From: an uncultured Candidatus Saccharibacteria bacterium
Lineage (GTDB): Bacteria > Patescibacteriota > Dojkabacteria > SC72
Length of the DNA: 64,000 nucleotides
Reading direction: 5' to 3'
Assembly (NCBI GenBank): GCA_964610125.1
Contig: CAZSUV010000001.1
Span: 184,035-248,034 of the forward strand
A program made the translations under genes and the position numbers. Under the pieces are notes generated by a model, which was not told where the DNA came from, did no database searches, and was given only the letters and a program-made list of their open reading frames with translations. Shown here one piece after another: positions 6,306-61,166 of this stretch (positions are counted from its first letter, which is position 1; each line of letters begins with the position of its first letter).

Positions 6306-6851
6306 ATGAATAAAAAGTATTACCTTAAATTCTGGTTAAAACAGAATAAAAATGAACTCATTACTGAAAGTTACCCAACGGTATTTGAAGTAAATTGGGA
6401 TGAATTAAGGAAGAAAGGTGCTGAGTTACTAGTATTTGATGTAGATGACACTCTATGTGGACATCAAGATAATATAACTGAGAAGAGTATCCAACTACTA
6501 AAGGGACTTCAATTAAAAGGATTTAAAATCGCATTCTTTTCAAACTCAAAGGAAGAAAGAAGGCAGGTAAAGAAAGTGGCCAAAGATTTCAATATATTTG
6601 TATTTCTAAATAGTGATAAACCAAACCCTACGAACCTTGGAATAGTACTGTCTGAAATGAAAATGAAATCATCCCAATGTGCGGTAATAGGGGATAAGGT
6701 TTCGACAGATCTATTCACTGCATATCAAATAGGGATACCTAATAGGATATTGGTAACACGACCATACTCTGAGGTATACGGTGGGAGTAAACCAGGGTTG
6801 GTATATAGATTGATGAGAAAAGTAGACAACTTCTTTTCTACAAATAACTAA
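6306..6851 (+). CDS. HAD-superfamily (subfamily IIIA-like) phosphatase
   Basis: LLVFDVDDTLCGH (DxDxT motif I) and VIGDKVSTDLF (motif IV). Small size typical of YqeG/GmhB-like phosphatases. Confidence 0.6.
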   Translation: MNKKYYLKFWLKQNKNELITESYPTVFEVNWDELRKKGAELLVFDVDDTLCGHQDNITEKSIQLLKGLQLKGFKIAFFSNSKEERRQVKKVAKDFNIFVFLNSDKPNPTNLGIVLSEMKMKSSQCAVIGDKVSTDLFTAYQIGIPNRILVTRPYSEVYGGSKPGLVYRLMRKVDNFFSTNN

Positions 6852-6855
6852 TTAG

Positions 6856-7626
6856 TTATTTCTTCCTCAACTTAAACATTCCTAAAGAATATTCATTCTT
6901 CTTAAAACTCTTAACCTTAATATCCCTATGTAACTTCCCATCATCATCAACCATATTAAATTCAACCAATTCAAAACCCTTAAAATATTTCAATATAGTT
7001 AATGGATTCCAAACATGATGAGCATTAAAACAAATCCTCTCCCTTCCTATGGGAGTAGAAAGGTAAAGAAAACCCCCAGGTTTAACAACTCGCCCCAATT
7101 CCTTACAAGCAACCTCAGGACCATTAACATCAAGTTTGTCTCCATATCTACCCAAACCAATATGCTCAATAACATGCAAACAAGAAACCGATTCCAATTG
7201 GTTATCCTTAAAAGGAAGATTCTCAATATCCCCCTCTAACAAATTCAAATTCTCAATATCAGCCTGAATAGGTCTAAGATCAATGAAATGAGCTTTCGTA
7301 ATACCAGCAAGATAGCAACTCATCTGATATGTAGAACCAACATCATAGTGATCCTTAGGCTTAATCTTGTTTACATTGTTGAACACCCAAATCTGTTGAT
7401 ACAAATAGTGATAGTCAACACCAGTATTCTTAGTCTTGTCATCAAGCATAGGATACAAGTCCAAGTTGATTAACCATGACTTAGACCTAACCATATACTT
7501 AAACAAAGAAACAACATATCCAGGTAAACCCCTTAAAGAATTCAAAACCTTTTGTAAATCAATAAAAGGAAGAAAACCATGATATATAAATTGGACTAAT
7601 CTAGATTGTTTAGGAGATTTGCTCAT
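6856..7626 (-). CDS. Class I SAM-dependent methyltransferase (methyltransferase type 11-like)
   Basis: VSCLHVIEHIGLGRYGDKLDVNGPEVACKELGRVVKPGGFLYLSTPIG. The start was chosen at MSKSPKQ (7626) to avoid a 125-nt overlap with the upstream gene; the ORF-track start is 7734. Confidence 0.6.
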   Translation of the reverse strand: MSKSPKQSRLVQFIYHGFLPFIDLQKVLNSLRGLPGYVVSLFKYMVRSKSWLINLDLYPMLDDKTKNTGVDYHYLYQQIWVFNNVNKIKPKDHYDVGSTYQMSCYLAGITKAHFIDLRPIQADIENLNLLEGDIENLPFKDNQLESVSCLHVIEHIGLGRYGDKLDVNGPEVACKELGRVVKPGGFLYLSTPIGRERICFNAHHVWNPLTILKYFKGFELVEFNMVDDDGKLHRDIKVKSFKKNEYSLGMFKLRKK

Positions 7627-8731
7627 ACTTTTTAATATTTTCTTTCCAATTAAATTTATTTTTAGCAGTATTGTATATATCTTTGTAAATCTTAACCTCA
7701 TCATCCCAGTTCTCCATAATATGGACAATATCATTCTTAATAGCTCTTCCAGAAAGATTCCCCAATGGGATCAATCTCTCCTGAGGAATAATCTCCTTAG
7801 TACCACCCACATCAGTAGCTACAATAAATAATCCATTGGCTAAACCTTCTAAAACAGTAGTAGGCAAACCCTCCGTATATGACGGATTTATGAAAATATC
7901 ATACTTCGAGAATTGCTTCTGTGTCTCTTCAAATGGAAGCAATCCCATCATACTAATATGCCCAGAAAGATTATTGTCCTTAACCAACCGCTTAATATTG
8001 CTCATCTCGGAACCGTCACCAATAATTGTGAGGGCAAAAGGAATACGATTCTCATTCATGGATACACACGCATCTATCAATTCATAAATCCCTTTGGAAC
8101 GAATTATTCTTCCTACAAAAAGAAGTTTAAGAATTTCTGGTTTTCTCTTGTTTGGAAATATATCTAATGGAAATGGATATGAGTTGTATATTGTTGGCCC
8201 ATATTTCAACTTTGAATATCTAGACTGTAGGAACTCTCTTACACTATCACTAATTGGGAATATTAATTTAGAATTTCTTAAAATATATCCAGCTAAGAAG
8301 AAATCAAAAATCCATGCACAAAGTCTTACAAACAATGATCCATCTTTTACGAAAGAAGAACCATGCTCAAAGTGGTAATGGATTAAATGATTGCGTTTGG
8401 CAATAAATGTGGCTATCCAGTTATTAAGATAGAAACGGGTATGGGTGTGTATCTCTGGATTATTTCCTTGGTTCTCTTTTATTACTTCAACAATCTGTTT
8501 CAAACCACTTGGAGTAGGAATGTAATACTTTCCTTTTACCATCTCTATACAATCAATACGTAGAATATCTGTATTACCATTTGTTTCAATCTCAGCAAGC
8601 TTCTTGTCATATCTCGATGTAATTACCAAGACTTTTTTGTTTGAAAGATTTTTGTAGAAGTTTTCTACGTATTTCTCTAATCCTCCTACGTGTGGTTTGT
8701 ATAGATGGGCAAAAACAATAATGTCGTACAT
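7610..8731 (-). CDS. Glycosyltransferase family 1 (GT4-type)
   Basis: INPSYTEGLPTTVLEGLANGLFIVATDVGGTKEII GT-B C-terminal motif. Confidence 0.8.
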   Translation of the reverse strand: MYDIIVFAHLYKPHVGGLEKYVENFYKNLSNKKVLVITSRYDKKLAEIETNGNTDILRIDCIEMVKGKYYIPTPSGLKQIVEVIKENQGNNPEIHTHTRFYLNNWIATFIAKRNHLIHYHFEHGSSFVKDGSLFVRLCAWIFDFFLAGYILRNSKLIFPISDSVREFLQSRYSKLKYGPTIYNSYPFPLDIFPNKRKPEILKLLFVGRIIRSKGIYELIDACVSMNENRIPFALTIIGDGSEMSNIKRLVKDNNLSGHISMMGLLPFEETQKQFSKYDIFINPSYTEGLPTTVLEGLANGLFIVATDVGGTKEIIPQERLIPLGNLSGRAIKNDIVHIMENWDDEVKIYKDIYNTAKNKFNWKENIKKYEQIS

Positions 8732-32828: not shown

Positions 32829-34703
32829 TTACTTTACACCCGACAGTAAATTCTTAAAACTATCCATACTTCCAAATGCATGAACTCTGGAAAGCGTAAG
32901 CGCATGTCCCGGATAGTTATCTATTGTAGAACCACAACTAACCGCTATGGTATATCCAGCACTAGCAACATATGACAAAGTCGTTGAGTTATATCCACAA
33001 CCAGGATAGCAGAAGGAGGTTACAGGTTTTCCAGTAGCGCTTTGTAATGCATATCTACTTGAGATAATTTCAGCAGAGAGTTCGCTTGGATCTGATACTT
33101 TCGTTAAATCTGGATGATGAGCCGAATGGGAACCAATATCCATCCCATTGTCCGACATTTCCTTGGTTTGAGCTTGGTTTATACTAGATCTTTGGGAGAT
33201 AATGTAGAAAACTCCGGTTAATCCGTATTCTTTAAGAATTCTATATCCATTGGTATATTGGTTAAGTACACCATCATCAAAAGTAAGCATAACTGTTTTT
33301 TGTGTTGGATTCTTACCAGTCTTTAAAATATTTGCATATTCTTGTGTGGAAATGGTTTTGTAATTTTTTTTAACAAGGTAGGCCATTTGTTTTTCAAAAT
33401 CATGTGGATCAACATAAAGGCCAGATACAAATGAACTCTGTCCAGCAGGAACAGGAGTTATCTGATGATACATGAAGATTGGAATTCTAACCGTTCCCTT
33501 TTGCTGTGCTGTAGGGGTTACATCGTATGGTTCATCGAAGTTGTTATCATTTATCTCAAATGTTAATGAAGGTATTATAGTTTTATCTTTACTCTCAAAC
33601 GTATATATTGGAGCTATGAATGTTTTGATTTCGTTGTTAAGATTGAAAGACTTAATGAGGAAGGATATCTGAGTACTAGCCTGAGCGTAGGTGTTTTCAT
33701 TTGTCGTAAGATTGATTAGTTGATTATTCACTAAATCCTTAATAGCAGTTGGGACAGTATCACCGTATTTGTATGCAACGAGTAATCCAACTAAAGTATC
33801 TAAATCACTGATTTTCTTTTTAGTTGTATCACTAAAATTATCTAGTTTAGAATCTACTGATTCAAGGTAATTGGTTATTAATTGAATTTTATGAAGTTGA
33901 CCGTAATCTAAATCAAGATATATATCATTGGAGTATGAGTGTGGATTCTCTGATGAAGCAACTTGGGTATTCTCCTTATTTATCTGGTACATATACATTT
34001 GGTTATTTATATATGTATCATATTCATTTTTTGATTCAAGAGATTTAAACCTTAATGATGTAGTTAAAAAGTTTAAAGTAGGTAGGAATGATTCATCGTG
34101 GATTTTGACAAGCTGTTCGGCACATGTCTCTTCTCTTAGAAATGATTCAATATTTTGTGCGATACAGGTGGAAAGTTCTTTTTCAATTGATGATTCTTTT
34201 CCCATTTCTAAATATGGAATTATATCCTCATTAGATTTGTTTTCTTTAACCATGGATTGGGAGATATCTTGAAGTTCAGTTAGTACATATTGGTTAAGAT
34301 ATGATTGGGGTATGAGGATATTTAATTGACTGTCCTGAAGATATTTGTACCCATTGGTGAGATTGGTTGTATCTTTGGTTTTTAATACTTCGGAATATCG
34401 TAAGTATGTAGTTAATTCATGTGGTGTAAATGCGCCAAAGTTCTTAGTTAAAGTATCATAATCTGTAGGGAGTATTTCAAGATTGGCTAACTCTGAGAGG
34501 GAAGTAGTGTTTGCATCCTGATTGATTTTTATATCCTCTGCACTAATGGAGAATCCTTTTGAGTTGTTATGCCCTTTCGTAATGAAAAGATTGTAGTAAA
34601 GCCCAAAGAATATTATGGCTAAGATTTCAATTCCGGAGAGTACACACAGGACAATCATGGTCTTTTTGAAAAGAATTGTTCTTGGTGATTTGTTCTCTTT
34701 CAT
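32829..34703 (-). CDS. Membrane-anchored polysaccharide deacetylase (NodB-domain) family protein
   Basis: N-terminal TM helix. C-terminal NodB motifs VMLTFDDGVLNQY, HSAHHPDL. Confidence 0.7.
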   Translation of the reverse strand: MKENKSPRTILFKKTMIVLCVLSGIEILAIIFFGLYYNLFITKGHNNSKGFSISAEDIKINQDANTTSLSELANLEILPTDYDTLTKNFGAFTPHELTTYLRYSEVLKTKDTTNLTNGYKYLQDSQLNILIPQSYLNQYVLTELQDISQSMVKENKSNEDIIPYLEMGKESSIEKELSTCIAQNIESFLREETCAEQLVKIHDESFLPTLNFLTTSLRFKSLESKNEYDTYINNQMYMYQINKENTQVASSENPHSYSNDIYLDLDYGQLHKIQLITNYLESVDSKLDNFSDTTKKKISDLDTLVGLLVAYKYGDTVPTAIKDLVNNQLINLTTNENTYAQASTQISFLIKSFNLNNEIKTFIAPIYTFESKDKTIIPSLTFEINDNNFDEPYDVTPTAQQKGTVRIPIFMYHQITPVPAGQSSFVSGLYVDPHDFEKQMAYLVKKNYKTISTQEYANILKTGKNPTQKTVMLTFDDGVLNQYTNGYRILKEYGLTGVFYIISQRSSINQAQTKEMSDNGMDIGSHSAHHPDLTKVSDPSELSAEIISSRYALQSATGKPVTSFCYPGCGYNSTTLSYVASAGYTIAVSCGSTIDNYPGHALTLSRVHAFGSMDSFKNLLSGVK

Positions 34704-34734: not shown

Positions 34735-35961
34735 TTACGATACCCCAGCTAAATACCCTGTACTCCAGCATAATTGAAGGTTGTAACCTCCAGTCGGGCC
34801 ATATACATCAATTATCTCTCCTGCAAAGTAAAGGTTATCGATGATTTTTGATTTCATTGTATTTGGATCTATCTCTCTTATATCTATACCTCCGTCTGTA
34901 ACAATTGCGTTATTCCAATCTCCAATTTCAGATATGTTTAATGTTAACTCCTTCAATATATGGAGGAGTGAATTTCTTGAATCTTTAGAAAGTTGAGAAG
35001 CTTTTTCATCAGGGTTAATTTTTGAAAGTTTGATTATGACTGGAATAAGGGACGAGGGAAGTAACTTTCCTAATGAATTTTTTATTGCTTTGTTTTTTGC
35101 CTCTGATAGATCTTTGGTAATTCTTTCTTTTAATGTAGGGTAGGTGAGTGCGGGTTTTAAATCAATTAAAACTTTTACGGGCGAATTTTCAAGGAGATCT
35201 CCAATTTCTCTTGCGCAATCTATGACTATTGGCCCACTGATCCCTGTATGGGTAAAGAGTAGTTCTCCGAATTTTGAAAAGATTTTCTTTCCATTTTGAT
35301 ATATATCCATTCGGATATTTTTTAAACCTAACCCTGATAAATCTTTAACCCAAGATTCTTTTGTTGTCATTGGAACGAGTGCAGGTTTAGGTTCTATGAT
35401 TTCATGCCCTAAGGATTTTGCTAATTCATAGCCATTGCCATTTGATCCTGTAAGGGGATATGACTTTCCTCCTGTAGCTATCACATATTTATCTGCTGTA
35501 AATATTCCTTTGTTTGTTTTAATTCCTGTTATGTGGTCTTTTTCACTCAGTATTTCTTGTACGTCACAATTGAAAAGAATGTCTTCTTTGATTAAGGCAT
35601 ACATCTTCTCTATGATTTCGTATGCATCGTCACTTTCTGGAAATACTCGGTTTCCTCGTTCTACCTTTGTTTTTATATCAAGTTCTTTATTAAAAAATTT
35701 CAATGTATCTGCTACACTGAATTTAGAAAAAGCATGGTAGAGAAATTTCCCATTTTTTTTGTAACTTGAAACTAAGGTTTTTAGATTGTCTGTATTATTG
35801 GTTATATTGCATCGTCCTTTGCCTGTTATGGCCAACTTTTTTCCAATACTATTGTTTTTCTCAATTAGTAGAATTTTCTCACCTTTTTGTTTTGCAAATA
35901 TTGCAGTAAAGAGCCCTGCGGGTCCTGCTCCGATGATGATTTTTTGATATTGGTTAGACAT
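34735..35961 (-). CDS. HI0933/BaiN-family FAD-dependent flavoprotein
   Basis: IIGAGPAGLFTA Rossmann start and the family hallmark AITGKGRCNITNN. Confidence 0.75.
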   Translation of the reverse strand: MSNQYQKIIIGAGPAGLFTAIFAKQKGEKILLIEKNNSIGKKLAITGKGRCNITNNTDNLKTLVSSYKKNGKFLYHAFSKFSVADTLKFFNKELDIKTKVERGNRVFPESDDAYEIIEKMYALIKEDILFNCDVQEILSEKDHITGIKTNKGIFTADKYVIATGGKSYPLTGSNGNGYELAKSLGHEIIEPKPALVPMTTKESWVKDLSGLGLKNIRMDIYQNGKKIFSKFGELLFTHTGISGPIVIDCAREIGDLLENSPVKVLIDLKPALTYPTLKERITKDLSEAKNKAIKNSLGKLLPSSLIPVIIKLSKINPDEKASQLSKDSRNSLLHILKELTLNISEIGDWNNAIVTDGGIDIREIDPNTMKSKIIDNLYFAGEIIDVYGPTGGYNLQLCWSTGYLAGVS

Positions 35962-38900
35962 TGTCTCTACTATGTTTTCTTCTTTTCTTTACGAATATTG
36001 CTATGCCAATACCGGCAATGATTTCTATTCCAGCTATGATTCCAAACCAAAGGTAAGGGGTTTTCTTTAATTCAATATTTTTCTCAACAATATTTGTTTC
36101 AACTGTAAACCATTCAGTTTCTGTAGGCATATATCCCTGTGTCTCTACAACAAGTTTGTACTCTCCTGGGGTTACAAAAAATTGATATTCTCCTTGTTGG
36201 TTGGTGTATTGAGGATTGGTTGTACCATCTTTTGAAAGCCAGAGTATTTCTTGATTACTATCCTTTGTGTAAAGAGTTACCTTTGCATTCAATATTCTTA
36301 ATTCATTTGTACCATCCTTTGTATATACATATCCGTACGGATCAACTCGAAGAGCCAAAGTTATTGAAAGACTGCTGGTATTATCTTTTGATATTGCTTG
36401 TATTGTTGTAGCGTATGTTCCCTTTACACTTGGGCTATCTATTGTTGCTTTGTAGGTATCTTTTTCAGAATCATATTCCATATTGTAAGTCTGATTGTTG
36501 ACAGTGATAATTACATTTTTCAGATTGGTAGAGTTATTAGTTATGGTGCTTGCGGGGATCTCAATCTTCAATGTTTGGTTTGCATAGGTATGAATATCTC
36601 CATTATCTGTTGAATTAAGTTGTTTTTCTTCTTGTGTGGTGACAACGATTTTTTGATCTTCTTTTAGATCTTGAGATTTGATTATTTTTGTTTGTGGTTG
36701 AACAACTGGAATGACTGGTTCCGGCTCGGAAGGTGTTCCTGGTTGAGTTGGAGCTGTTACTGCGGCTGGAGTTGTAGCTTGTGCCAGTGTTCCTGATGAT
36801 TGATTCCCAATATTATCTAATGCAAATATTGTGTAGTAATATCGAGTACTAATACTTAGGTTGGTATCTGAATATGCAGAGAGTGTACCCTCGTAAACTT
36901 TTGCTCCATCAGTTGTAGAAAGAGGAACATGAGTATTATTCCTCATTAATATGACTTTAGAAAAATCAGTATTGGTTGGATTTTGCCAAGCAAGTGCAAC
37001 GGTTCTCTGTGTTGGTGTAGCTGTAAAGTTGCTCACATTTGTTGGAGCGATGGAATCGTACTTTATGACAAAGGATCTAGTCTCACTGTATGTTCCTGCA
37101 CCGTTCAAGGCTCTTACTTTGATTGTAGTTTCTCCTTCATTTTGAGCAGGAAGATCATATGATGGGGAAGTAGTGAAGTATGTATAGTTAGAGGTATTTG
37201 GAATTGAACCATCGTTTGTAATGTAGAATGTGTCTCCTGATGTTGAGTTAGGATCTGTCCAAGAAATTACAGGACCACTTTCGGTATTTTGTAATATGCC
37301 ATTGTTTGCCCCTGTTACCTCAACTATATCGACTACGGAGGAATCTATTTTCAAAGTGTATTTGTAGTATGTCGTTTTGCTTGTATTATCCTTTGCTACC
37401 AGATGTAGATACCAAATACCATTAGTTAATTCAGAAGTTGCCAGGGTATCGTTTGCTAAGGCTTGTGTTCCATCTACTAATACATCTGCAATTGTCAGTG
37501 TTTCATTTTGATTTAGTAATTTCCATACTCCGAGGATACCGCTTCCTGTATCAGAAGCGATCCAATTAACGGTTGCTGAACTATCTGGATACCAATTGGT
37601 TTGTATAGGGTTAGTTATGCTTGTTATTGAATCAAATATAGGGTCTTGTGTATCGATATTTGCAGCGTATGTTGAAAAGGCTGTGTTTCCACAATTATCT
37701 CTTGTGGCTAAGTGGAAATATGACGAGCCTTCAGTGATGTTTTGGAAGCTAATTGCATCCTCAGATATGAGGTTTCCATCTGCAATTGTGGTTACAAGGT
37801 CTGTTTCTTCATTACTATCCCATATGTACCATGTGTTTTCTATACCGCTTTCGGAATCAGAGATAGTCCAGCTAATATTTGCAGTGGTGGTTGTATACCA
37901 CGCGGATTGATTTGGATGGGTGTTACTTGTTAATGATGATATATTTGGATTTGTATTATCCGTTTTAATATTAAACGTTAAATCGGAGGTATCTACACCA
38001 CCTGTTGGCATATTTAAAATATACAGGGTATATGTATCATCAATATTTGTAACATTCGCTGTGGTTATATCTATCGATATATTTTCTCCAGAGGATATTA
38101 AATCAGTCCATTCGGTTGATTCTTCATTTGATATTTTTACATCAAAATCATTGTCTGATGGATATATATTTGTAGTGCCAAAATATATTACTTTAACCCC
38201 AGAGAAGGTGAGTACTTGATTTGAGCCTATCCAATCCCCTGAAGTAATTTGATTGGTTTGTGCATCTGTTACTGTGAGTGTTCCTATGAATGTTAATCTG
38301 TTCTCATATTTATATGTTGTAGCATTGTAACTGTATATACTTTCAGCAGCGGCCTTGTCCAATGCTTTTACCCCATATTGTATGCTAGTTCCTCGGGTCC
38401 AGTTCCAGTTTGAAGTAACATGCCATGTAACTGTAATGTCATTTGCTGTAGGTGACCCAATTGTAGTGTCGTATGTAATCCCTGAGATATATTCAGATCC
38501 AGATACGGGAGTTGGGAACTGTCCAGTTTGATTTGAACCTGTTGGGGTTATGTAATATTCAATATCTGTTCCAGCGGGATTTTTGATTTGTAGATACAAT
38601 TTGTCTAAATCAGCTGCACCATTGATATCTGAATATTTTGTTTGAATGGTTAATGCTTTTCCAGCATAGATATCCTCTGCTCCTGTGATATCTGCGTTTA
38701 GTGCAGTAGGGGCATAGTTCATTGTAAATTGAGCCGTAGTGGACCAGTTACTTTCATTCTGATATGTGTTACTGTCCCAGAACTTCATTCTCCAGTAATA
38801 TGTAGCACCTGGTTGTAAGGCTGTTCCTGCGTATGAAATATCTTGTGATTTACTTCCATTTGCAACCGCAGGTACGAGGGATGTTTTTGTAGAATCCCAC

Positions 38901-41152
38901 ATAACTGTGCCTGTAAACGAGGAGTTAGTATTTACCTGGATTTGGTAGTAGTTTCCTGTGTTGTCCCCATCTATATCAGTAAATATTGCAGAAAATTCTG
39001 GGGTATTGTCAGAAACTTGTGAGGGATTGGTACTTCCTTCTGTTTGTAGAGTAGAAGGAGTACTTGGGGGTGTATTTTGTACGTTTTCAGCTCCAATTAT
39101 GGTTGCTTTTGATACTTTTCTTTGTGCATATATAACTGTGGTATATGCTGGTAGGTTTGAAACTGAATCTGATGTTACTGTTGCTGAGTGTGTATGTGTA
39201 GAGTCTGCAAAGTTAGCACCAGTACCATAGCTTGTCAAAGTAGCGGAAGGAGCTCCTGAGGTTATAGTTGTTGAATGTGTATGTGTTGCTGCGCCTCCAG
39301 TTGCTCCATATGTAGTTGCACCTCTAGCGAATTTACTGTCTAGAGCAGTAAATCTACTCCATCCTAATGGAGGTAGAGTAGAGGTTATGATTACGTTGTC
39401 TTCAGTTACATATTGGTCTGTGTTTGCCTTAGCAAATACCATATCTAGATATGGAGGTAGGTTTGAACTAGCAGAGACTGTCGCGCTTGTAGAGGTATGA
39501 GTATGTGTACTAGAGGCAATAGTCCCACTTGCTGCAGATGGGGTAGGGTATCTAATGATTATAATTCCAGAACCACCAGCAGCAGGATTTCCTTGCGAAC
39601 CACCACCGCCGCCACCATTACCAGTATTTGCTGCGCCAGCACTACCATTATATACAGCATCATTAGCGCCTCTACCACCAATAGCATATGTAATTGGACT
39701 TCCAGTAATACTAGAAGTAAATCCAGGACCGCCAGCCCCACCTTCCCAACTAGTAGGGGCAGCAACACCAGGACCACCAGCCCCACCACCACCTCCACCA
39801 GCATAACGATTAGCGGCCCCACCATTATAACCTTGGCCAGCAGTTCCAGTACCTCCACCACCCCATGATGCACCTCCACCACCACCTGATCCACCACTAG
39901 CACCCCAACCGTAACCACCACCTATTGCTGTTAAGCCATTAAATGAAGAGTTTAATCCTGAAGATGCGCCAACAACTATAGAATATGATCCAGAAGCAAA
40001 AGCTACATTTTCGCTATGAAGTACTCCACCACCACCACCTCCTCCACCAGATAGATTATCTCCTTTTGATCCTGCGCCCCCAGCGCCAACAACTAAGTAA
40101 TCAATATTTCCAGAGCCAGTTGCGGTAAATGTTCCACTTGAAGTGAATTTGTGTATGGTATATCCACCAGATGTAGTAATTGTTCCTCCAGTAGCACTGA
40201 GGGGTGTAGTTATAGTTGCTTGTGTTTCCGCAGATGTTCCAGTTACAACGTTAGTAGTAGTCGTATGAGTATGTGTAGCTGCTCCTCCTGTAGTTCCATA
40301 TGTTGTATTTGCTTTTGGCAATACATCGTCCAAAGCACTAAACCTAGTCCAACCAGTAGGGGTATCAACATCAAACATAGATATTAACCCCTGAGAAATG
40401 AGGAAAGTATTTCTGTAACAAAGAATAGCATCCTTGTATGGAGGTTGTACTGAAGCATTTGAAAGTATAGTTGCTCTAAGACTTGTATGGGTGTGTGAGG
40501 TAGTTGTCCCATTAGTACCAGCAGAAGTAGATCCGGCTATATTTGTAGTAGAAATAGAAGACGAAGTTGCTATTGCATCTGTATGGGCATGTGAATTAGA
40601 ACCCCCAGTAGTTCCATATGTGCTACTGCCGTACAAGAATTTCCCATCCAAATCAGATGCTCTAGTCCAACCGGAAGGACATGTAGTATCTGCATACATA
40701 TATGTATTTCCACTCCAAGTTAGGGCATTACTAATAGCGGTAGGATTACCATAGTACATGTAAATTGTTTTGCCACCATCAGGAAGTGAGGGTACTTTGG
40801 TCCAGATTTTTGTCTCTGATGTATTGCATCCACTTTCAATCCAGTAATCTAAAGAAGTATTTTCATCACTATCTGTAAATCGTAAATCATTGCAAGTATT
40901 TTGTAGTTTTCCTTCATTAACCAGAGAGAGTGTATCTACAGTTATTAATACATCCTCATTGGTTAAGGTCGAGTCAGTATTCTCTACTGTAACGGGTTTT
41001 CTATATTGCCATCCCAAATCCATCCACCCAAGCGTTGATGGTACTGGTATCTTTGCGAAGGTACCCACAATTATAGTGGAGATGATTAGTGATCTTATTA
41101 CTAAAAGCGAGAGCTTTAATGCTTTCTTCATGAGGCGTTTCAGTAAGGGCAT
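35954..41152 (-). CDS. Giant (1732 aa) cell-surface protein with tail-collar-like and Gly-rich repeats, fn3-like domains and a C-terminal TM anchor
   Basis: Signal/anchor at N-terminus. Three or more repeats of GWTR(F/A)S-LD-KF--G--TYGTTGG--(T/S)H(T/A)H plus three H-x-H-x(n)-LP(P/A)Y units. An 180-aa poly-Gly segment (GGGGGGGG...IIIRYP). Multiple beta-sandwich segments. Ends LWFGIIAGIEIIAGIGIAIFVKKRRKH. Confidence 0.7.
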   Translation of the reverse strand: MPLLKRLMKKALKLSLLVIRSLIISTIIVGTFAKIPVPSTLGWMDLGWQYRKPVTVENTDSTLTNEDVLITVDTLSLVNEGKLQNTCNDLRFTDSDENTSLDYWIESGCNTSETKIWTKVPSLPDGGKTIYMYYGNPTAISNALTWSGNTYMYADTTCPSGWTRASDLDGKFLYGSSTYGTTGGSNSHAHTDAIATSSSISTTNIAGSTSAGTNGTTTSHTHTSLRATILSNASVQPPYKDAILCYRNTFLISQGLISMFDVDTPTGWTRFSALDDVLPKANTTYGTTGGAATHTHTTTTNVVTGTSAETQATITTPLSATGGTITTSGGYTIHKFTSSGTFTATGSGNIDYLVVGAGGAGSKGDNLSGGGGGGGGVLHSENVAFASGSYSIVVGASSGLNSSFNGLTAIGGGYGWGASGGSGGGGGASWGGGGTGTAGQGYNGGAANRYAGGGGGGAGGPGVAAPTSWEGGAGGPGFTSSITGSPITYAIGGRGANDAVYNGSAGAANTGNGGGGGGSQGNPAAGGSGIIIIRYPTPSAASGTIASSTHTHTSTSATVSASSNLPPYLDMVFAKANTDQYVTEDNVIITSTLPPLGWSRFTALDSKFARGATTYGATGGAATHTHSTTITSGAPSATLTSYGTGANFADSTHTHSATVTSDSVSNLPAYTTVIYAQRKVSKATIIGAENVQNTPPSTPSTLQTEGSTNPSQVSDNTPEFSAIFTDIDGDNTGNYYQIQVNTNSSFTGTVMWDSTKTSLVPAVANGSKSQDISYAGTALQPGATYYWRMKFWDSNTYQNESNWSTTAQFTMNYAPTALNADITGAEDIYAGKALTIQTKYSDINGAADLDKLYLQIKNPAGTDIEYYITPTGSNQTGQFPTPVSGSEYISGITYDTTIGSPTANDITVTWHVTSNWNWTRGTSIQYGVKALDKAAAESIYSYNATTYKYENRLTFIGTLTVTDAQTNQITSGDWIGSNQVLTFSGVKVIYFGTTNIYPSDNDFDVKISNEESTEWTDLISSGENISIDITTANVTNIDDTYTLYILNMPTGGVDTSDLTFNIKTDNTNPNISSLTSNTHPNQSAWYTTTTANISWTISDSESGIENTWYIWDSNEETDLVTTIADGNLISEDAISFQNITEGSSYFHLATRDNCGNTAFSTYAANIDTQDPIFDSITSITNPIQTNWYPDSSATVNWIASDTGSGILGVWKLLNQNETLTIADVLVDGTQALANDTLATSELTNGIWYLHLVAKDNTSKTTYYKYTLKIDSSVVDIVEVTGANNGILQNTESGPVISWTDPNSTSGDTFYITNDGSIPNTSNYTYFTTSPSYDLPAQNEGETTIKVRALNGAGTYSETRSFVIKYDSIAPTNVSNFTATPTQRTVALAWQNPTNTDFSKVILMRNNTHVPLSTTDGAKVYEGTLSAYSDTNLSISTRYYYTIFALDNIGNQSSGTLAQATTPAAVTAPTQPGTPSEPEPVIPVVQPQTKIIKSQDLKEDQKIVVTTQEEKQLNSTDNGDIHTYANQTLKIEIPASTITNNSTNLKNVIITVNNQTYNMEYDSEKDTYKATIDSPSVKGTYATTIQAISKDNTSSLSITLALRVDPYGYVYTKDGTNELRILNAKVTLYTKDSNQEILWLSKDGTTNPQYTNQQGEYQFFVTPGEYKLVVETQGYMPTETEWFTVETNIVEKNIELKKTPYLWFGIIAGIEIIAGIGIAIFVKKRRKHSRDNV

Positions 41153-41207: not shown

Positions 41208-42134
41208 CTAGGCCTCTAGTTCGAAAGTTTTTGGATCTATCCCAATCTCTCCTAACTGTTGCTTGAATACATCTAAGGCTTGTTCACTTCCGAGTGTATT
41301 GGCAGACCAATCTCCTCCTGCACATATTTTGTGATAGTTTTTGCCGTAAAACTTTTGCATAGTTTTTTCATCTGATTTTGAGATATTCCATTTAGGATAG
41401 AAGGAATCATATTCATTAATAACACTTGCATCTAATAGCTCATGCATACAGAACATAATTACCTCTAAACCTAAGGCATGACAAGCTTGGGCTAATCTCT
41501 TACACCCAGTATATGTCGCATATACAGATACTGTAACAACCTTTTCTAAATTGGGACATTTCTTTTTTAAATCTTCTATACCTGCAATCAAATTTCTACC
41601 AGCGGCAATAGAGTCATACATTATAGCGAGTTTTATATCTGCTAAGATTTCTGTTTCCTGTCCTTTGGGCAAATCTATTTTGTAATTACAAACTTTTCCA
41701 GCGATACCTTTGACGCCATTCTCTTCATCCTTTACATGGTGTACATCCATAATTAGGTAAAGTCTTGATTCAAAACCACTTCCCATATATGTATTTACAA
41801 ATGGAGATTGGGTGATAGGTTCTCTGATGAGCATAGCGCTAATAGCTTCTTTGCTTGGATTATATTTATGATTTATAGCCTTCTTAAATTCTTTAGTGGA
41901 AGCTATGGTATATGTGGCTGCGCATAAATCTACAGATCTAGGCATTCCTAGATGCAATCTTGCAGGTTTTCCGTTATGTTCAATTAAGAGAGATTTGGTT
42001 TCTGGAGATTGAAGAACATTAATGGGGACGGAATTGCGGAGGATTTTAGTTTGATATATTTTGTACTTGGAAGGGGTATTTTTGTATGGGGTTTGTACTG
42101 ATCCGTTGGCTAGTGTGGTCCAAGTAATATTCAT
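41208..42134 (-). CDS. Hypothetical protein with phosphoribosyltransferase-like (UPRT-type) PRPP-binding motif
   Basis: ILADIKLAIMYDSIAAGRNLIAGI resembles the PRTase fold motif (hydrophobic stretch - D - small residues - G). No other recognised motif. Confidence 0.3.
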   Translation of the reverse strand: MNITWTTLANGSVQTPYKNTPSKYKIYQTKILRNSVPINVLQSPETKSLLIEHNGKPARLHLGMPRSVDLCAATYTIASTKEFKKAINHKYNPSKEAISAMLIREPITQSPFVNTYMGSGFESRLYLIMDVHHVKDEENGVKGIAGKVCNYKIDLPKGQETEILADIKLAIMYDSIAAGRNLIAGIEDLKKKCPNLEKVVTVSVYATYTGCKRLAQACHALGLEVIMFCMHELLDASVINEYDSFYPKWNISKSDEKTMQKFYGKNYHKICAGGDWSANTLGSEQALDVFKQQLGEIGIDPKTFELEA

Positions 42135-59879: not shown

Positions 59880-61166
59880 ATGACGAAAACAAATGAAGAG
59901 TATAAAAATAAGTGGAGAAATATAAAACTTCAGAAATTAGGAACTACATATTCTGGCTTAGCTGGGAAGAAGAAGGATGACTTTAATACAGGAGAATCAA
60001 AATTCATATCTTATATGAATATATATTTAAACCCAAGTCTCAAAGGGGAAGCTTTATTAAATGTAAGAATCAAAGATGGAGAAAAACAGAACAAAGTGAA
60101 ATATGGCGATTTGTTCTTTACAACATCTTCCGAAACTCCTGATGAAGTGGGAATATCTTCTGTATTGCTTGAGAATCTGGAATGTGATGCTTACTTAAAT
60201 AGTTTTTGTTTTGGTTTTAGATTGTACGATTTCAATACCATTGATCCAAACTTTGCAAAGTATTATTTTAGGGGACAGTCGTTCCGAAAACAGATGTTTA
60301 GAATTGCACAGGGGGCAACAAGATTCAACCTCTCGAAGAAATATTTTATGGATACAAAAATACAAATTCCAACAACAATTAACGAACAAAAACGTATTGT
60401 ATCTATATTGGAGACATATGATAGCTATATAAATATATTGGGAGAAAAGATTGATATAAAAAAGAAAATTAATAAATATTTGAGACAAATACTGTTAACA
60501 GGAGAAAAGAGAATGAGTGGATTTCCTGATGAATGGAAAAATATAAAACTTCAAAAGTTGGGTACCACATATTCAGGATTAACTGGAAAAAACAAAGAGG
60601 ATTTTAATACTGGTGAATCAAAGTTCATTTCATATATGAATATATATTTAAATCCAAGTCTCAAAAAGGAAGCTTTGTTGAATGTAAAGATTAAAGATGG
60701 AGAAAAACAAAATAAAATTCAATATGGAGACTTATTTTTTACAACTTCTTCTGAAACTCCAGATGAAGTAGGAATATCTTCTGTTCTTCTTGAAGATTTT
60801 GGTTGTGATGCTTACTTGAATAGCTTCTGTTTTGGTTTTAGACTTCATGATTTCAAAACAATCGATCCAAACTTCGCAAAGCATTATTTTAGGGGACAAT
60901 CATTTAGAAAACAGATGTTTAGAATTGCTCAAGGGGCAACTAGATTCAATCTCTCTAAGAAATATTTCATGGATACTGAGATACATATCCCAAGTTCTAT
61001 TGCAGAACAACAAGACATAGCTTCAATTCTTTCTTCTGCAGATAAAGAGATCGAAGGCTTAGAAACTAAAAAGAAATTAGTAGAACAACAAAGAAAATAT
61101 CTCTTAAATAATCTAATAACAGGAAATATAAGAGTTCCTGGAACAATAGGTAATAATTTAAACTAA
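59880..61166 (+). CDS. hsdS: Type I restriction-modification specificity subunit with two near-identical TRDs
   Basis: 428 aa. Two about 155-aa TRD blocks that are roughly 90% identical at protein level. Shine-Dalgarno GGTGGAG upstream. Confidence 0.85.
   Translation: MTKTNEEYKNKWRNIKLQKLGTTYSGLAGKKKDDFNTGESKFISYMNIYLNPSLKGEALLNVRIKDGEKQNKVKYGDLFFTTSSETPDEVGISSVLLENLECDAYLNSFCFGFRLYDFNTIDPNFAKYYFRGQSFRKQMFRIAQGATRFNLSKKYFMDTKIQIPTTINEQKRIVSILETYDSYINILGEKIDIKKKINKYLRQILLTGEKRMSGFPDEWKNIKLQKLGTTYSGLTGKNKEDFNTGESKFISYMNIYLNPSLKKEALLNVKIKDGEKQNKIQYGDLFFTTSSETPDEVGISSVLLEDFGCDAYLNSFCFGFRLHDFKTIDPNFAKHYFRGQSFRKQMFRIAQGATRFNLSKKYFMDTEIHIPSSIAEQQDIASILSSADKEIEGLETKKKLVEQQRKYLLNNLITGNIRVPGTIGNNLN
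59913..60996 (+). repeat. Imperfect direct repeat (2 x about 460 bp, roughly 83% nucleotide identity, 621-bp period) encoding the two TRDs of hsdS
   Basis: Copy 1 at about 59913-60375, copy 2 at about 60534-60996. Differences are mainly synonymous. Confidence 0.8.

Follow-up and report, generated by a model that had tools for sequence, protein, structure and literature searches.

Within the 64,000-nucleotide stretch of DNA analyzed here (the window), one gene encodes a 1732-residue protein that an earlier note described as a giant surface protein, perhaps an adhesin, with phage tail-collar-like repeats and a polyglycine segment. This raises the question of what the repeats are, how they relate to phage fibers, and what such a protein may do for its cell. 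The reading favored here, with a probability of roughly 0.55, is that the protein is a type-I-like Dojkabacteria surface adhesin whose phage-fiber-like head forms a pseudo-trimer and mediates attachment to a partner or host.

Gene Integrity and Genomic Context

The gene occupies positions 35954..41152 on the minus strand, where the open reading frame begins with ATG and runs for 1732 codons plus a stop codon without internal stops. An identical 1732-residue protein is encoded on a separate Logan assembly contig, and a colinear ortholog of 1766 residues (P0149, KKP92411.1) comes from candidate division WS6 (Dojkabacteria). The window protein and this ortholog are 72% identical across residues 525–1732, with one gap, and every N-terminal segment is 53–87% identical, including the Gly-rich segment. 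Because the glycine-coding run uses mixed codons and agrees with both the independent ortholog and the Logan copy, it is not a homopolymer artifact. The gene predicted in the earlier note is thus intact, with neither the interruption nor the GGN artifact that had been raised as a concern. The local GC spike is also real (0.456 in 39001–40000 and about 0.35 elsewhere) and stems from the Gly_rich_2 segment described below.

The gene is chromosomal and belongs to a cell of the Dojkabacteria (WS6), ultrasmall members of the Patescibacteria/CPR. The closest relatives of the protein are encoded in WS6/Dojkabacteria MAGs, several of which have kept orthologs. Nearby genes encode a two-component system, an ABC transporter, P-type ATPases, a flavoprotein, and a deacetylase-like protein; no phage genes were found among these housekeeping and transport neighbors.

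The N-terminal Segment and DUF2341

Residues 1–35 (41048..41152, minus strand) consist of a basic N-region (KRLMKKALK) and a hydrophobic segment with a mean Kyte-Doolittle value above 1.6 in windows starting at residues 10–17. They probably form a signal peptide or signal anchor, with cleavage expected after ..GTFA, and 114 of 149 family representatives carry an N-terminal hydrophobic segment. The segment at residues 10–35 is a second hydrophobic stretch in the protein, absent from the earlier note. Should this segment stay uncleaved and act as an anchor, both ends of the protein would be tethered and the head would lie close to the membrane.

A DUF2341 domain follows at residues 41–145 (40718..41032, minus strand), with a Pfam match to PF10102 at residues 87–142 (E=1.1e-16; 61.5 bits, cutoff 23.4). 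The domain was found in 31 of the 45 family members scanned. DUF2341 is associated with PilY-type pilus-tip adhesins (PMC4858521) and with giant Patescibacteria proteins for which adhesion was proposed (PMC11809585). The window protein resembles these giant proteins and the archaeal/PilY-type adhesins in its N-terminal DUF2341, its very large size, its predicted secretion, and its CPR genome. The published proteins, for which adhesion or host interaction is proposed, are not described as having a triple-HxH domain or a nested Gly_rich_2 domain. Unlike the DUF2341/PilY-type adhesins, the window protein shows no prepilin signal and carries a C-terminal transmembrane (TM) anchor of its own.

The Triple-HxH Domain

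All repeat motifs listed in the earlier note were located in the protein. GW[TS]R lies at residues 161, 267, and 597, TYG.TGG at 178, 284, and 614, and [LQ]P[PA]Y at 236, 565, and 667; the six HxH motifs are at 188, 220, 294, 550, 624, and 653. The repeat is also visible in the DNA as a 41-nucleotide family of three copies (at 40581, 40263, and 39273) with 76–83% identity. A profile of homologous modules matches the three copies in the window with i-Evalues from 1e-37 to 1e-10, far beyond chance. Module 1 (residues 150–249; 40406..40705, minus strand; C-P-x-GWTR ... TYGTTGG..HAH ... SHTH ... QPPY..ILC) has an i-Evalue of 1e-37, an AF2 core pLDDT of about 95–98, and a position-specific Cys pair. 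Module 2 is split into an N-terminal half (residues 256–328; 40169..40387, minus strand; GWTR ... TYGTTGG..THTH), which covers profile positions 2–69 (i-Evalue 1.3e-16), and a C-terminal half (residues 536–578; 39419..39547, minus strand; STHTH ... NLPPY..VFA), which covers positions 50–100 (i-Evalue 1.2e-10). Module 3 (residues 586–679; 39116..39397, minus strand; PPLGWSR ... TYGATGG..THTH ... STHTH ... NLPAY..IYA) matches with an i-Evalue of 1.3e-33.

At E≤1e-3 the profile retrieves 2090 cluster representatives, of which 274 remain at E≤1e-30. Judged by this sequence conservation, the module of about 100 residues is a genuine domain without Pfam coverage. Its four histidines are 96–98% conserved among 429 modules. 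Only P, G, W, H, and Y occupy columns conserved at 80% or more, and no conserved acidic residue accompanies HxH. Copy number is nearly constant, as 144 of 158 proteins contain either three modules (127 proteins) or six (17 proteins). Most triplets (144 of 164) are uninterrupted and span 297–330 residues, save one of 278. Where a triplet is interrupted, the insertion invariably sits in the loop between the HxH motifs; this concerns copy 2 in 18 cases and both copies 1 and 2 in two. When each of 408 modules is paired with its closest relative from a different protein, the two occupy the same triplet position in 366 cases. Individual copies also bear their own marks, with the Cys pair specific to copy 1 and a proline (PPLGW) marking copy 3 in 114 of 136 third modules. 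As these patterns indicate, the triplet is an ordered unit of diverged copies. The inter-module linkers are modeled by AF2 with pLDDT values of 92–98, which suggests that the modules form one rigid unit and are not strung together like beads.

A Gly_rich_2 Domain Nested in Module 2

The stretch lying between the HxH motifs of module 2 had been described as a poly-glycine segment. It is indeed Gly-rich, with five runs of at least four glycines between residues 369 and 518, but it is a folded domain rather than a plain run. Residues 337–535 (39548..40144, minus strand) match Gly_rich_2 (PF21722; E=3.9e-11; 43.8 bits, cutoff 24.3) over profile positions 1–225 of 226, and are predicted to form a TNF-like beta-sandwich followed by a glycine-rich lattice. 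Parts of the lattice are modeled with low confidence (pLDDT 36–60). In Foldseek searches, the model matches the Pam3 fiber (7ypx_A, probability 0.96) and the Bxb1 tail tip (9d93_Pa, probability 0.99), although the similarity to these PDB entries is weak (E about 0.02; TM 0.2–0.36). There are also 98 matches to viral structures in BFVD at E≤1e-3, and the ALK/LTK glycine-rich domains score E>1 with a probability of at most 0.06.

In the cyanophage Pam3 tail fiber gp24 (7YPX/7YFW), a TNF-like beta-sandwich likewise continues as a glycine-rich lattice that features motifs of the GGGGxGG type. Recognition of the host receptor was assigned to these domains, whose distal tip is variable (PMC9608196). 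This variability has a parallel in the Gly-rich domain of the window protein, which is the region least conserved with its ortholog (53% identity). Unlike the homotrimeric end of the Pam3 fiber, the window domain is nested in the loop of another domain within a single-chain cellular membrane protein. Related polyglycine "brush" domains occur in Salmonella phage S16 gp38, the mycobacteriophage Bxb1 tail tip (9D93), and the ALK/LTK TG domain. Gly_rich_2 is the best-supported phage receptor-binding-like element of the window protein. Elsewhere, it is also fused to prepilin N-termini.

Occurrence of the Module in Phages

Residues 146–664 match the phage protein family phrog_2295 (E=2.7e-33), and the module occurs in viral contigs in several arrangements. 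A 485-residue protein with tail-spike and tail-fiber PHROG matches carries a single C-terminal module (contigs L029/L030), and a fused triplet of 392 residues is encoded on contig L028. Contigs L026/L027 contain three tandem paralogous single-module genes downstream of a tape-measure gene, and three of the encoded proteins match phrog_8469, "tail fiber protein". Each of these tandem genes might equally specify a homotrimer of its own, which speaks against the pseudo-trimer proposed below. Tail fibers bearing a single C-terminal module are trimeric.

In trimeric fibers, three symmetry-related HxH motifs create an octahedral six-His Fe/Zn site (PMC6116203). The module shares with T4 gp37/gp12, the R1/R2 pyocin fiber, and P2 gpV an invariant His-x-His flanked by small residues, and its viral versions are tail fibers. 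It differs from these proteins in two ways: the three copies belong to a single polypeptide, not to separate chains, and each copy has two HxH motifs, for which metal binding is presumed. Neither sequence comparison nor Foldseek against the PDB detected similarity to the trimeric HxH fibers (gp12, gp37, pyocin, and P2 gpV). The earlier suggestion of phage receptor-binding modules, taken broadly, finds support in phrog_2295, the viral tail-fiber occurrences, and Gly_rich_2; its link to Collar specifically has none.

Stalk and Membrane Anchor

The head is followed by an Ig-like domain of the rhamnosidase N-terminal type (residues 700–812; 38717..39055, minus strand; PF25788, E=4.5e-15; PDB 6i60_A, E=9e-4) and about seven Ig/FN3-like beta-sandwiches recognized by AF2 and Foldseek (residues 813–1600; 36353..38716, minus strand), with a Pro-rich linker near residues 1461–1485. 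A CarboxypepD_reg-like beta-sandwich comes next (residues 1601–1698; 36059..36352, minus strand). Its PF13715 match (E=3.3e-5) scores 24.3 bits and so misses the cutoff of 32.2, and homologs P0409, P0411, and P0417 bear PF13620. The C-terminus (residues 1699–1732; 35957..36058, minus strand) contains a hydrophobic segment at 1699–1723, a helix in the model (H888–915, model numbering), followed by the basic tail KKRRKHSRDNV. Both TM segment and tail are conserved in stalk homologs. The AF2 stalk model is all-beta (mean pLDDT 77), with 479 Foldseek matches in the PDB at E≤1e-3 to multi-Ig/FN3 ectodomains. About nine Ig/FN3/CarboxypepD_reg-like domains and a TM anchor are thus predicted C-terminal to the head, in line with the beta-sandwiches, carboxypeptidase-regulatory-like domain, and anchor of the earlier note. 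One of the Foldseek matches is the base of the Aureispira grappling-hook protein GhpA (9FLY; 9fly_A, E=3.6e-16), which similarly places a distal binding head on a long beta-sandwich string. This likeness is generic to Ig/FN3 domains and provides no evidence of common descent, and the heads differ.

Proposed Architecture and Alternative Explanations

In the favored reading, the protein would extend outward from a C-terminal TM helix with a cytoplasmic basic tail, through the stalk, to an N-terminal head composed of DUF2341 and the triple-HxH domain of about 310 residues. The three copies may fold as a single-chain pseudo-trimer of a phage fiber-tip module. The first HxH of each copy would contribute to one metal site and the second to another, each holding six His in an octahedral arrangement like that of T4 gp37/gp12, the R-pyocin fiber, and P2 gpV. 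Gly_rich_2, which interrupts the variable loop of copy 2, would be displayed outward as the ligand-binding tip. The cell may thereby bind a structure on the surface of a partner or host cell, and the fast-evolving, swappable head would determine the specificity. A host- or partner-binding adhesin is the most likely function, and the earlier proposal of an episymbiont adhesin fits the Dojkabacteria taxonomy, with binding itself remaining putative.

The repeats had been likened to those of the tail-collar family. PF07484 was absent from the whole protein (E≤1), 16 isolated modules (E≤10), 45 family members, and the phage single-module proteins (E≤1), and Foldseek against the PDB returned none of the gp12/collar entries. 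The earlier note had named the lack of HMM support as fatal to its collar claim, which therefore fails. Even so, the module could genuinely belong to the Collar/MdpB superfamily as a strongly diverged form, shortened by losses of about 31 and about 10 residues from the canonical domain. A greedy HHalign alignment with MdpB-type Collar proteins is colinear (hydrophobic strand-P-x-GW; DL-x-GRF/LD-x-KF; G..GG; HxH; N-x-(Q/P)PY-L..F), and the short motifs follow the same order in Collar, MdpB-type proteins, and T4 gp12 (P-x-GW, D-L-x-G-R/K-F, GG, HxH, N-x-x-P-Y-L-x-x-F). An HxH likewise follows the domain in Collar proteins (consensus ..PaHtH). With a score of 20.4, the alignment outperforms each of 30 column shuffles (maximum 16.9) but barely the reversed-sequence control (18.3); its probability is 6–8% and its confident region spans 12–13 columns. 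As the module is also about 70 residues shorter and has no HMM or structural match, such kinship is possible yet doubtful. It is unlikely that the modules are independent beads, each with its own metal or ligand, on what would still be a surface adhesin. Two HxH motifs per module could form a local four-His site, and Foldseek reveals no similarity to known trimeric HxH fibers. Moreover, HxH losses are statistically independent across the three copies and so do not support shared sites, although alignment slips may contribute to this result. The locked copy number, the position-specific orthology of the copies, the confidently modeled linkers, and the trimeric state of the fibers that bear single-module phage proteins argue instead for the pseudo-trimer.

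An enzymatic role, as a glycoside hydrolase or a metallohydrolase with catalytic HxH, is very improbable. HxH motifs occur in many metalloenzymes, KKP92411.1 is named "Bnr repeat-containing glycosyl hydrolase" in GenBank, and one Ig domain is of the kind found at the rhamnosidase N-terminus. However, this match is limited to that non-catalytic domain, Pfam and NCBIfam searches at E≤1 revealed no BNR, glycoside-hydrolase, or peptidase catalytic domain, and the module lacks a conserved acidic partner for HxH. Still harder to credit is a phage, prophage, or tailocin fiber gene, despite the phrog_2295 match and the presence of the module and Gly_rich_2 in viral contigs and viral structure predictions. 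Phage genes do not flank the locus, orthologs persist in Dojkabacteria MAGs, and the protein combines a signal or anchor at its N-terminus with a basic-tailed TM helix at its C-terminus and a 1000-residue Ig-like stalk common to paralogs with non-phage heads.

Divergence of Head and Stalk

For the favored surface adhesin, a head built from two modules otherwise found at phage tail-fiber tips suggests that the cell recognizes its partner or host with a viral toolkit. This head evolves faster than the stalk and is swappable. The window protein and its close relative P0408 share 85% identity in the signal peptide and 66–83% in the stalk (76–83% in the beta-sandwich domains), whereas identity in the triplet is only 24–46% and P0408 has no Gly-rich insert. 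Other proteins with the same stalk carry unrelated heads.

Integrity and genomic setting of the giant gene

The 1732-aa giant protein is encoded by an uninterrupted, ATG-started open reading frame (window 35954..41152, minus strand). All the repeat motifs listed in the earlier note are found in its translation: GW[TS]R occurs three times (aa 161, 267, 597), as do TYG.TGG (aa 178, 284, 614) and [LQ]P[PA]Y (aa 236, 565, 667), HxH occurs six times (aa 188, 220, 294, 550, 624, 653), and five glycine runs fall within aa 369-518. The repeat shows up three times in the DNA as well, where a 41-nt family has its copies at positions 40581, 40263, and 39273. The GC content is 0.456 at 39-40 kb of the window versus about 0.35 elsewhere. 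An assembly or sequencing artefact in the glycine-coding run is ruled out by its mixed codons, by an identical protein encoded on a separate Logan contig, and by a colinear ortholog. This ortholog (P0149, GenBank KKP92411.1, candidate division WS6, 1766 aa) aligns with the giant protein end to end, with 72% identity and a single gap across aa 525-1732. The best relatives are found in Candidatus Dojkabacteria/WS6 and other Patescibacteria MAGs.

The surrounding genes encode a flavoprotein, a deacetylase-like membrane protein, a two-component system, an ABC/FtsX transporter, and heavy-metal ATPases, and there are no phage genes among those flanking the giant gene, which is a chromosomal gene of a CPR bacterium. 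A 308-aa ORF with no Pfam family on record (41208-42134, minus strand) lies 55 nt upstream on the same strand. Two genes downstream lies a 624-aa ORF (32829-34703, minus strand) with a hydrophobic N-terminal segment. Motifs in its C-terminal region (...TFDDG...HSxxH...) suggest a polysaccharide deacetylase.

The HxH module and the triplet rule

Aligning the motif-bearing stretches of the giant protein and its eight closest homologs defined the HxH module, a unit of about 100 aa. It consists of a hydrophobic strand, P-x-GWTR, LD-x-KF-x-G, YG-x-TGG-x3-HxH, about 28 variable residues, a second HxH, about 12 residues, LPPY, and a closing hydrophobic strand. The giant protein has three modules, at aa 150-249, 256-578, and 586-679, and the second contains a Gly_rich_2 domain exactly between its two HxH motifs. 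The most conserved residues are four His, one Pro, and a Trp, with the His kept in 96-98% of 429 modules. Searched against 1.84 billion representatives, the module profile retrieved 2090 proteins at E<=1e-3, 274 of them at E<=1e-30. No Pfam family covers the cellular or viral versions, and the profile has no match to PDB sequences at E<=10. A cupin-type G-x5-HxH-x3-4-E site or a catalytic metallohydrolase was rejected on account of the unsuitable motif spacing and the lack of a conserved acidic residue.

Modules occur in threes. Exactly three are present in 127 of the 158 proteins examined, and six in another 17. Tandem triplets are uninterrupted in 144 of 164 cases, almost all of them 297-330 aa long; the others have an insertion in module 2 (18/164) or in both modules 1 and 2 (2/164). 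When 408 modules were compared across proteins, 366 had their closest relative at their own triplet position. Module 1 is typically marked by a Cys pair (C-P-x-GW ... F-C) and module 3 by PPLGW. Judged by these sequence comparisons, the three positions of the triplet are not interchangeable. With two HxH in each of its three modules, the giant protein has three equivalent, conserved HxH motifs that one site could draw on, and copy number runs in multiples of three. A test for co-loss of HxH across the three copies found losses that look independent, which supports neither side. An AlphaFold2 model of aa 140-690 has a mean pLDDT of 79.9, rising to 92-98 in the module cores and in the linkers that join them, as would be expected of one rigid body and not of beads on a string.

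The triple-HxH family ranges over CPR bacteria, at least one DPANN archaeon, an actinobacterial MAG, and phages. Two giant proteins, one from Woesearchaeota (P0134, 5808 aa) and one from an Actinomycetota MAG (P0232, 5472 aa), carry the triple-HxH domain twice, with six modules each, so the domain crosses the boundary between bacteria and archaea. The family with its triplet rule appears to be undescribed in the literature and databases searched, as do the single-gene, three-gene, and fused forms of the module and the use of the triple-HxH domain as a scaffold for nested receptor-binding domains. Giant DUF2341 adhesin-like proteins in CPR genomes and glycine-rich fibre-tip domains are already known; an earlier description of phage-fibre-like giant proteins in Patescibacteria was sought, and nothing relevant was found in the papers searched.

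Viral versions of the module

The HxH module is phage-related. Scanning IMG/VR with a module-3 pattern, derived from the module-3 sub-alignment, yielded five viral contigs. Two of them (L029 and L030) encode a 485-aa protein with PHROG matches to tail spike, minor tail, and tail-fibre families and a single module at its end (...CPSGWTRVADFDGKFLRGAATYGGTGGSSTHTH...HLPPYIDVVFCKKD*). Two others (L026, 5957-7576; L027, 6503-8468) have three consecutive paralogous genes after the tape-measure gene and before the integrase, each with one HxH module and extra HxH repeats. On L027 these genes lie at 6503-7162, 7110-7817, and 7839-8468. Three of these tandem-gene proteins match phrog_8469 ("tail fiber protein") over the module, and the products may form a heterotrimeric fibre tip. 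The fifth contig (L028) encodes a 392-aa protein with a fused triplet. A tblastn search of aa 140-690 against 50,697 GenBank phage records gave no match, probably owing to the low-complexity filter, and is thus uninformative.

Phage tail fibres are trimers. HxH motifs in trimeric fibres build octahedral six-histidine Fe/Zn sites from three symmetry-related chains, for example in T4 gp37 and gp12, the R-pyocin fibre, and P2 gpV (PMC6116203).

Relation to the Collar family

The repeats had been likened to phage tail-collar repeats, and this identity is not borne out. PF07484 has no match on the whole giant protein (E<=1), on 16 isolated modules (E<=10), among 45 family members (E<=0.01), or on eight viral module proteins (E<=1). 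Other Pfam matches on isolated modules, to Phage_fiber (E=3.9) and Gp10_D3 (E=0.092, one module), are at noise level. The module was also compared, profile against profile, with 106 genuine Collar/MdpB-type proteins. HHalign gave a probability of 5.8-8.4% (P=0.004-0.0065), with 12-13 confident columns at the N-x-PPY-L..F end. Run greedily, it aligned the two colinearly motif by motif (P-x-GW; DLxGRF vs LDxKF; GG; HxH; N..PY) at the cost of deleting stretches of about 31 and about 10 residues. At 20.4, the score is higher than in any of 30 column shuffles (maximum 16.9) and barely above the reversed control (18.3). Foldseek of the model against the PDB retrieved no collar-containing fibre (T4 gp12 1OCY/1PDI/5IV5, 5LYE, 9CUY); the yardstick was the set of gp12-type chains retrieved in a sequence search with a Collar protein. 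That the module belongs to the Collar family is therefore unproven, and remote homology is possible.

The glycine-rich domain

The glycine-rich stretch, taken for a poly-glycine segment in the earlier note, is not a linker. Gly_rich_2 (PF21722) matches it end to end at aa 337-535 (E=3.9e-11, 43.8 bits versus a gathering score of 24.3, profile positions 1-225 of 226), and nearly all of the 616 homologs found are annotated as PF21722. Foldseek of the model matched the Bxb1 mycobacteriophage tail tip (9d93_Pa, E=0.017, probability 0.99) and the cyanophage Pam3 fibre (7ypx_A, E=0.024, probability 0.96), and the ALK/LTK glycine-rich domains much more weakly (E=2-5). The fold of Pam3 gp24 and the ALK TG domain is a TNF-like sandwich with a glycine lattice, and the lattice part of the model has a pLDDT of 36-60. 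The viral structure library BFVD gave 98 matches at E<=1e-3, mostly to a "glycine-rich domain-containing protein" of tailed phages and prasinoviruses. The distal tip of the Pam3 fibre is variable, and its authors noted a resemblance to S16 gp38 and ALK (PMC9608196). Such domains are also called brush domains in mycobacteriophages (PMC13243795).

Gly_rich_2 is also fused to prepilin N-termini in related metagenomic proteins. Three homologs (P0010, P0021, and P0105) join it directly to the prepilin N-terminal methylation domain PF07963; type IV pilins of uncultured bacteria appear to display this binding module too. The giant protein has no PF07963 match, and its N-terminus is without a G/A-F-T-L-I-E type motif.

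A conserved stalk and an exchangeable head

Pfam assigns four domains to the giant protein, one of them below threshold. Besides Gly_rich_2, these are DUF2341 (PF10102) at aa 87-142 (E=1.1e-16, 61.5 bits versus a gathering score of 23.4), an Ig domain of the rhamnosidase N-terminal type at aa 700-812, and a CarboxypepD_reg-like domain at aa 1642-1697 (PF13715, E=3.3e-5, 24.3 bits, below the cutoff of 32.2). The related family PF13620 is on record for the homologs P0409, P0411, and P0417, and the corresponding region of the giant protein is modelled as a beta-sandwich. NCBIfam added no further domains. PHROGs gave one strong match, to phrog_2295 of unknown function (E=2.7e-33, aa 146-664 on profile positions 400-968 of 1183). 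Hydrophobic segments lie at aa 10-35 and aa 1699-1723, the latter followed by KKRRKHSRDNV.

The AlphaFold2 model of aa 812-1731 (mean pLDDT 77) is all-beta up to a terminal helix, and its Foldseek matches number in the hundreds, all multi-Ig/FN3 ectodomains such as the base of the Aureispira grappling-hook protein. As modelled, the last 1000 residues thus form a beta-sandwich stalk of a generic kind, with a TM anchor.

Head and stalk differ in conservation. Between the giant protein and its WS6 ortholog, the glycine-rich domain is the least conserved region (53% identity versus 68-88% in every other segment compared). In a close relative (P0408), the signal peptide is 85% identical and the stalk 66-83% (76-83% in the beta-sandwich domains), whereas the triplet is only 24-46% identical and the glycine-rich insert is absent altogether. 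The stalk has only 11 relatives, some of them with entirely different heads. These comparisons thus point to a design in which anchor and stalk are conserved, whereas the head evolves fast and can be exchanged. As a source of the head's variability, a diversity-generating retroelement or template repeat was rejected, as no long repeats pair with the giant gene.

Proposed structure and function

Some chains have a single module, others have three, and in some phages three tandem genes have one each; copy number follows the multiples-of-three rule. From this we infer, by analogy with phage fibres, that in cells the triplet forms a pseudo-trimer out of one chain, with two metal sites on its axis. 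One site would take the first HxH of each module (H188/H190, H294/H296, H624/H626) and the other site the second (H220/H222, H550/H552, H653/H655). A bolder reading, to which we give a probability of roughly one in three (0.35), is as follows. The triple-HxH domain would be an undescribed pseudo-trimer that arose by fusion of three copies, or three paralogous genes, of a phage fibre-tip module, with two six-His sites on its axis. Episymbionts (CPR bacteria and a DPANN archaeon) would have recruited it, along with polyglycine receptor-binding domains nested in it, as a head for host recognition that can be exchanged; cells and phages would draw on one module pool, and head swaps would set host range. 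The evolutionary pattern is solid, and the structure and function are what we infer.

On the cell, the N-terminal segment would be a Sec signal cleaved after ..GTFA, and the C-terminal helix would anchor the protein with its basic tail in the cytoplasm. A stalk of about nine domains would push DUF2341 and the triple-HxH scaffold away from the cell, and the scaffold would display the nested glycine-rich domain as a ligand-binding tip. If the N-terminal segment is uncleaved, the head would be membrane-proximal. DUF2341 has been linked to pilus-tip adhesins (PMC4858521) and to giant Patescibacteria proteins proposed for adhesion (PMC11809585). Together with the Gly_rich_2/prepilin fusions, these associations fit an adhesin role.

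The modules could instead be independent bead repeats, which is unlikely given a locked copy number, copies ordered by position, and linkers that are rigid in the model. That the module is a true, diverged member of the Collar family is somewhat doubtful on the profile and structure comparisons; it would be compatible with the pseudo-trimer.

Two further readings concern the whole protein. GenBank names the WS6 ortholog a BNR-repeat glycosyl hydrolase, but an enzyme is very improbable: neither BNR repeats nor a glycoside-hydrolase catalytic domain was matched by Pfam or NCBIfam at E<=1, and the rhamnosidase similarity is limited to the rhamnosidase N-terminal Ig domain. A prophage fibre is hardly credible in view of the non-phage gene context, the hydrophobic anchors, and the long stalk.

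Ultrasmall CPR bacteria depend on attachment to other cells, and few of the molecules that decide their partners are known. The giant gene is a concrete candidate for partner choice. It would encode a stalked surface protein with a head of two modules that phages otherwise use for host recognition. It also leads to a newly defined, large domain family (at least 2090 cluster representatives) outside Pfam-A, NCBIfam, and the annotated PHROGs. Its "always three" rule is unusual, and related versions exist as one module per gene, three tandem genes, and one fused chain. If the pseudo-trimer is true, it would be a natural example of a homotrimeric fibre tip turned into a single polypeptide, of interest for the evolution and engineering of receptor-binding proteins; such a fusion would let each copy diverge and take up nested binding domains. 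If the binding function is wrong, the protein is an ordinary large surface protein, and the better domain annotation remains.

Related surface proteins and other repeats

Several homologs (P0412, P0413, and P0415) and two related loci (L002 and L004) have the stalk and anchor in common with the giant protein and a different head, with a TWIGGTDTNW.T.(A/S)NWS.. motif. One MAG, Loclat_bin-19700, encodes two paralogs of this stalk/anchor family. By sequence similarity, the stalk-sharing proteins look like a small lineage-specific family of head-swapped surface proteins.

Elsewhere in the window, a 300-nt direct repeat (59908-60207 and 60529-60828, 82% identical, 621 nt apart) falls within a 428-aa ORF (59880..61166) as an internal duplication; this gene is unrelated to the giant gene.

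The C-terminal ends of triplet-bearing proteins vary. A TM helix, as in the giant protein, ends only six of 149. A conserved motif, [FY]-x-G-L-x-L-x-G-L-x-L-[DN], ends 24 of the 149 (P0121, P0123, P0125, P0135, and 20 others) and may be an uncharacterised sorting signal or a terminal strand.
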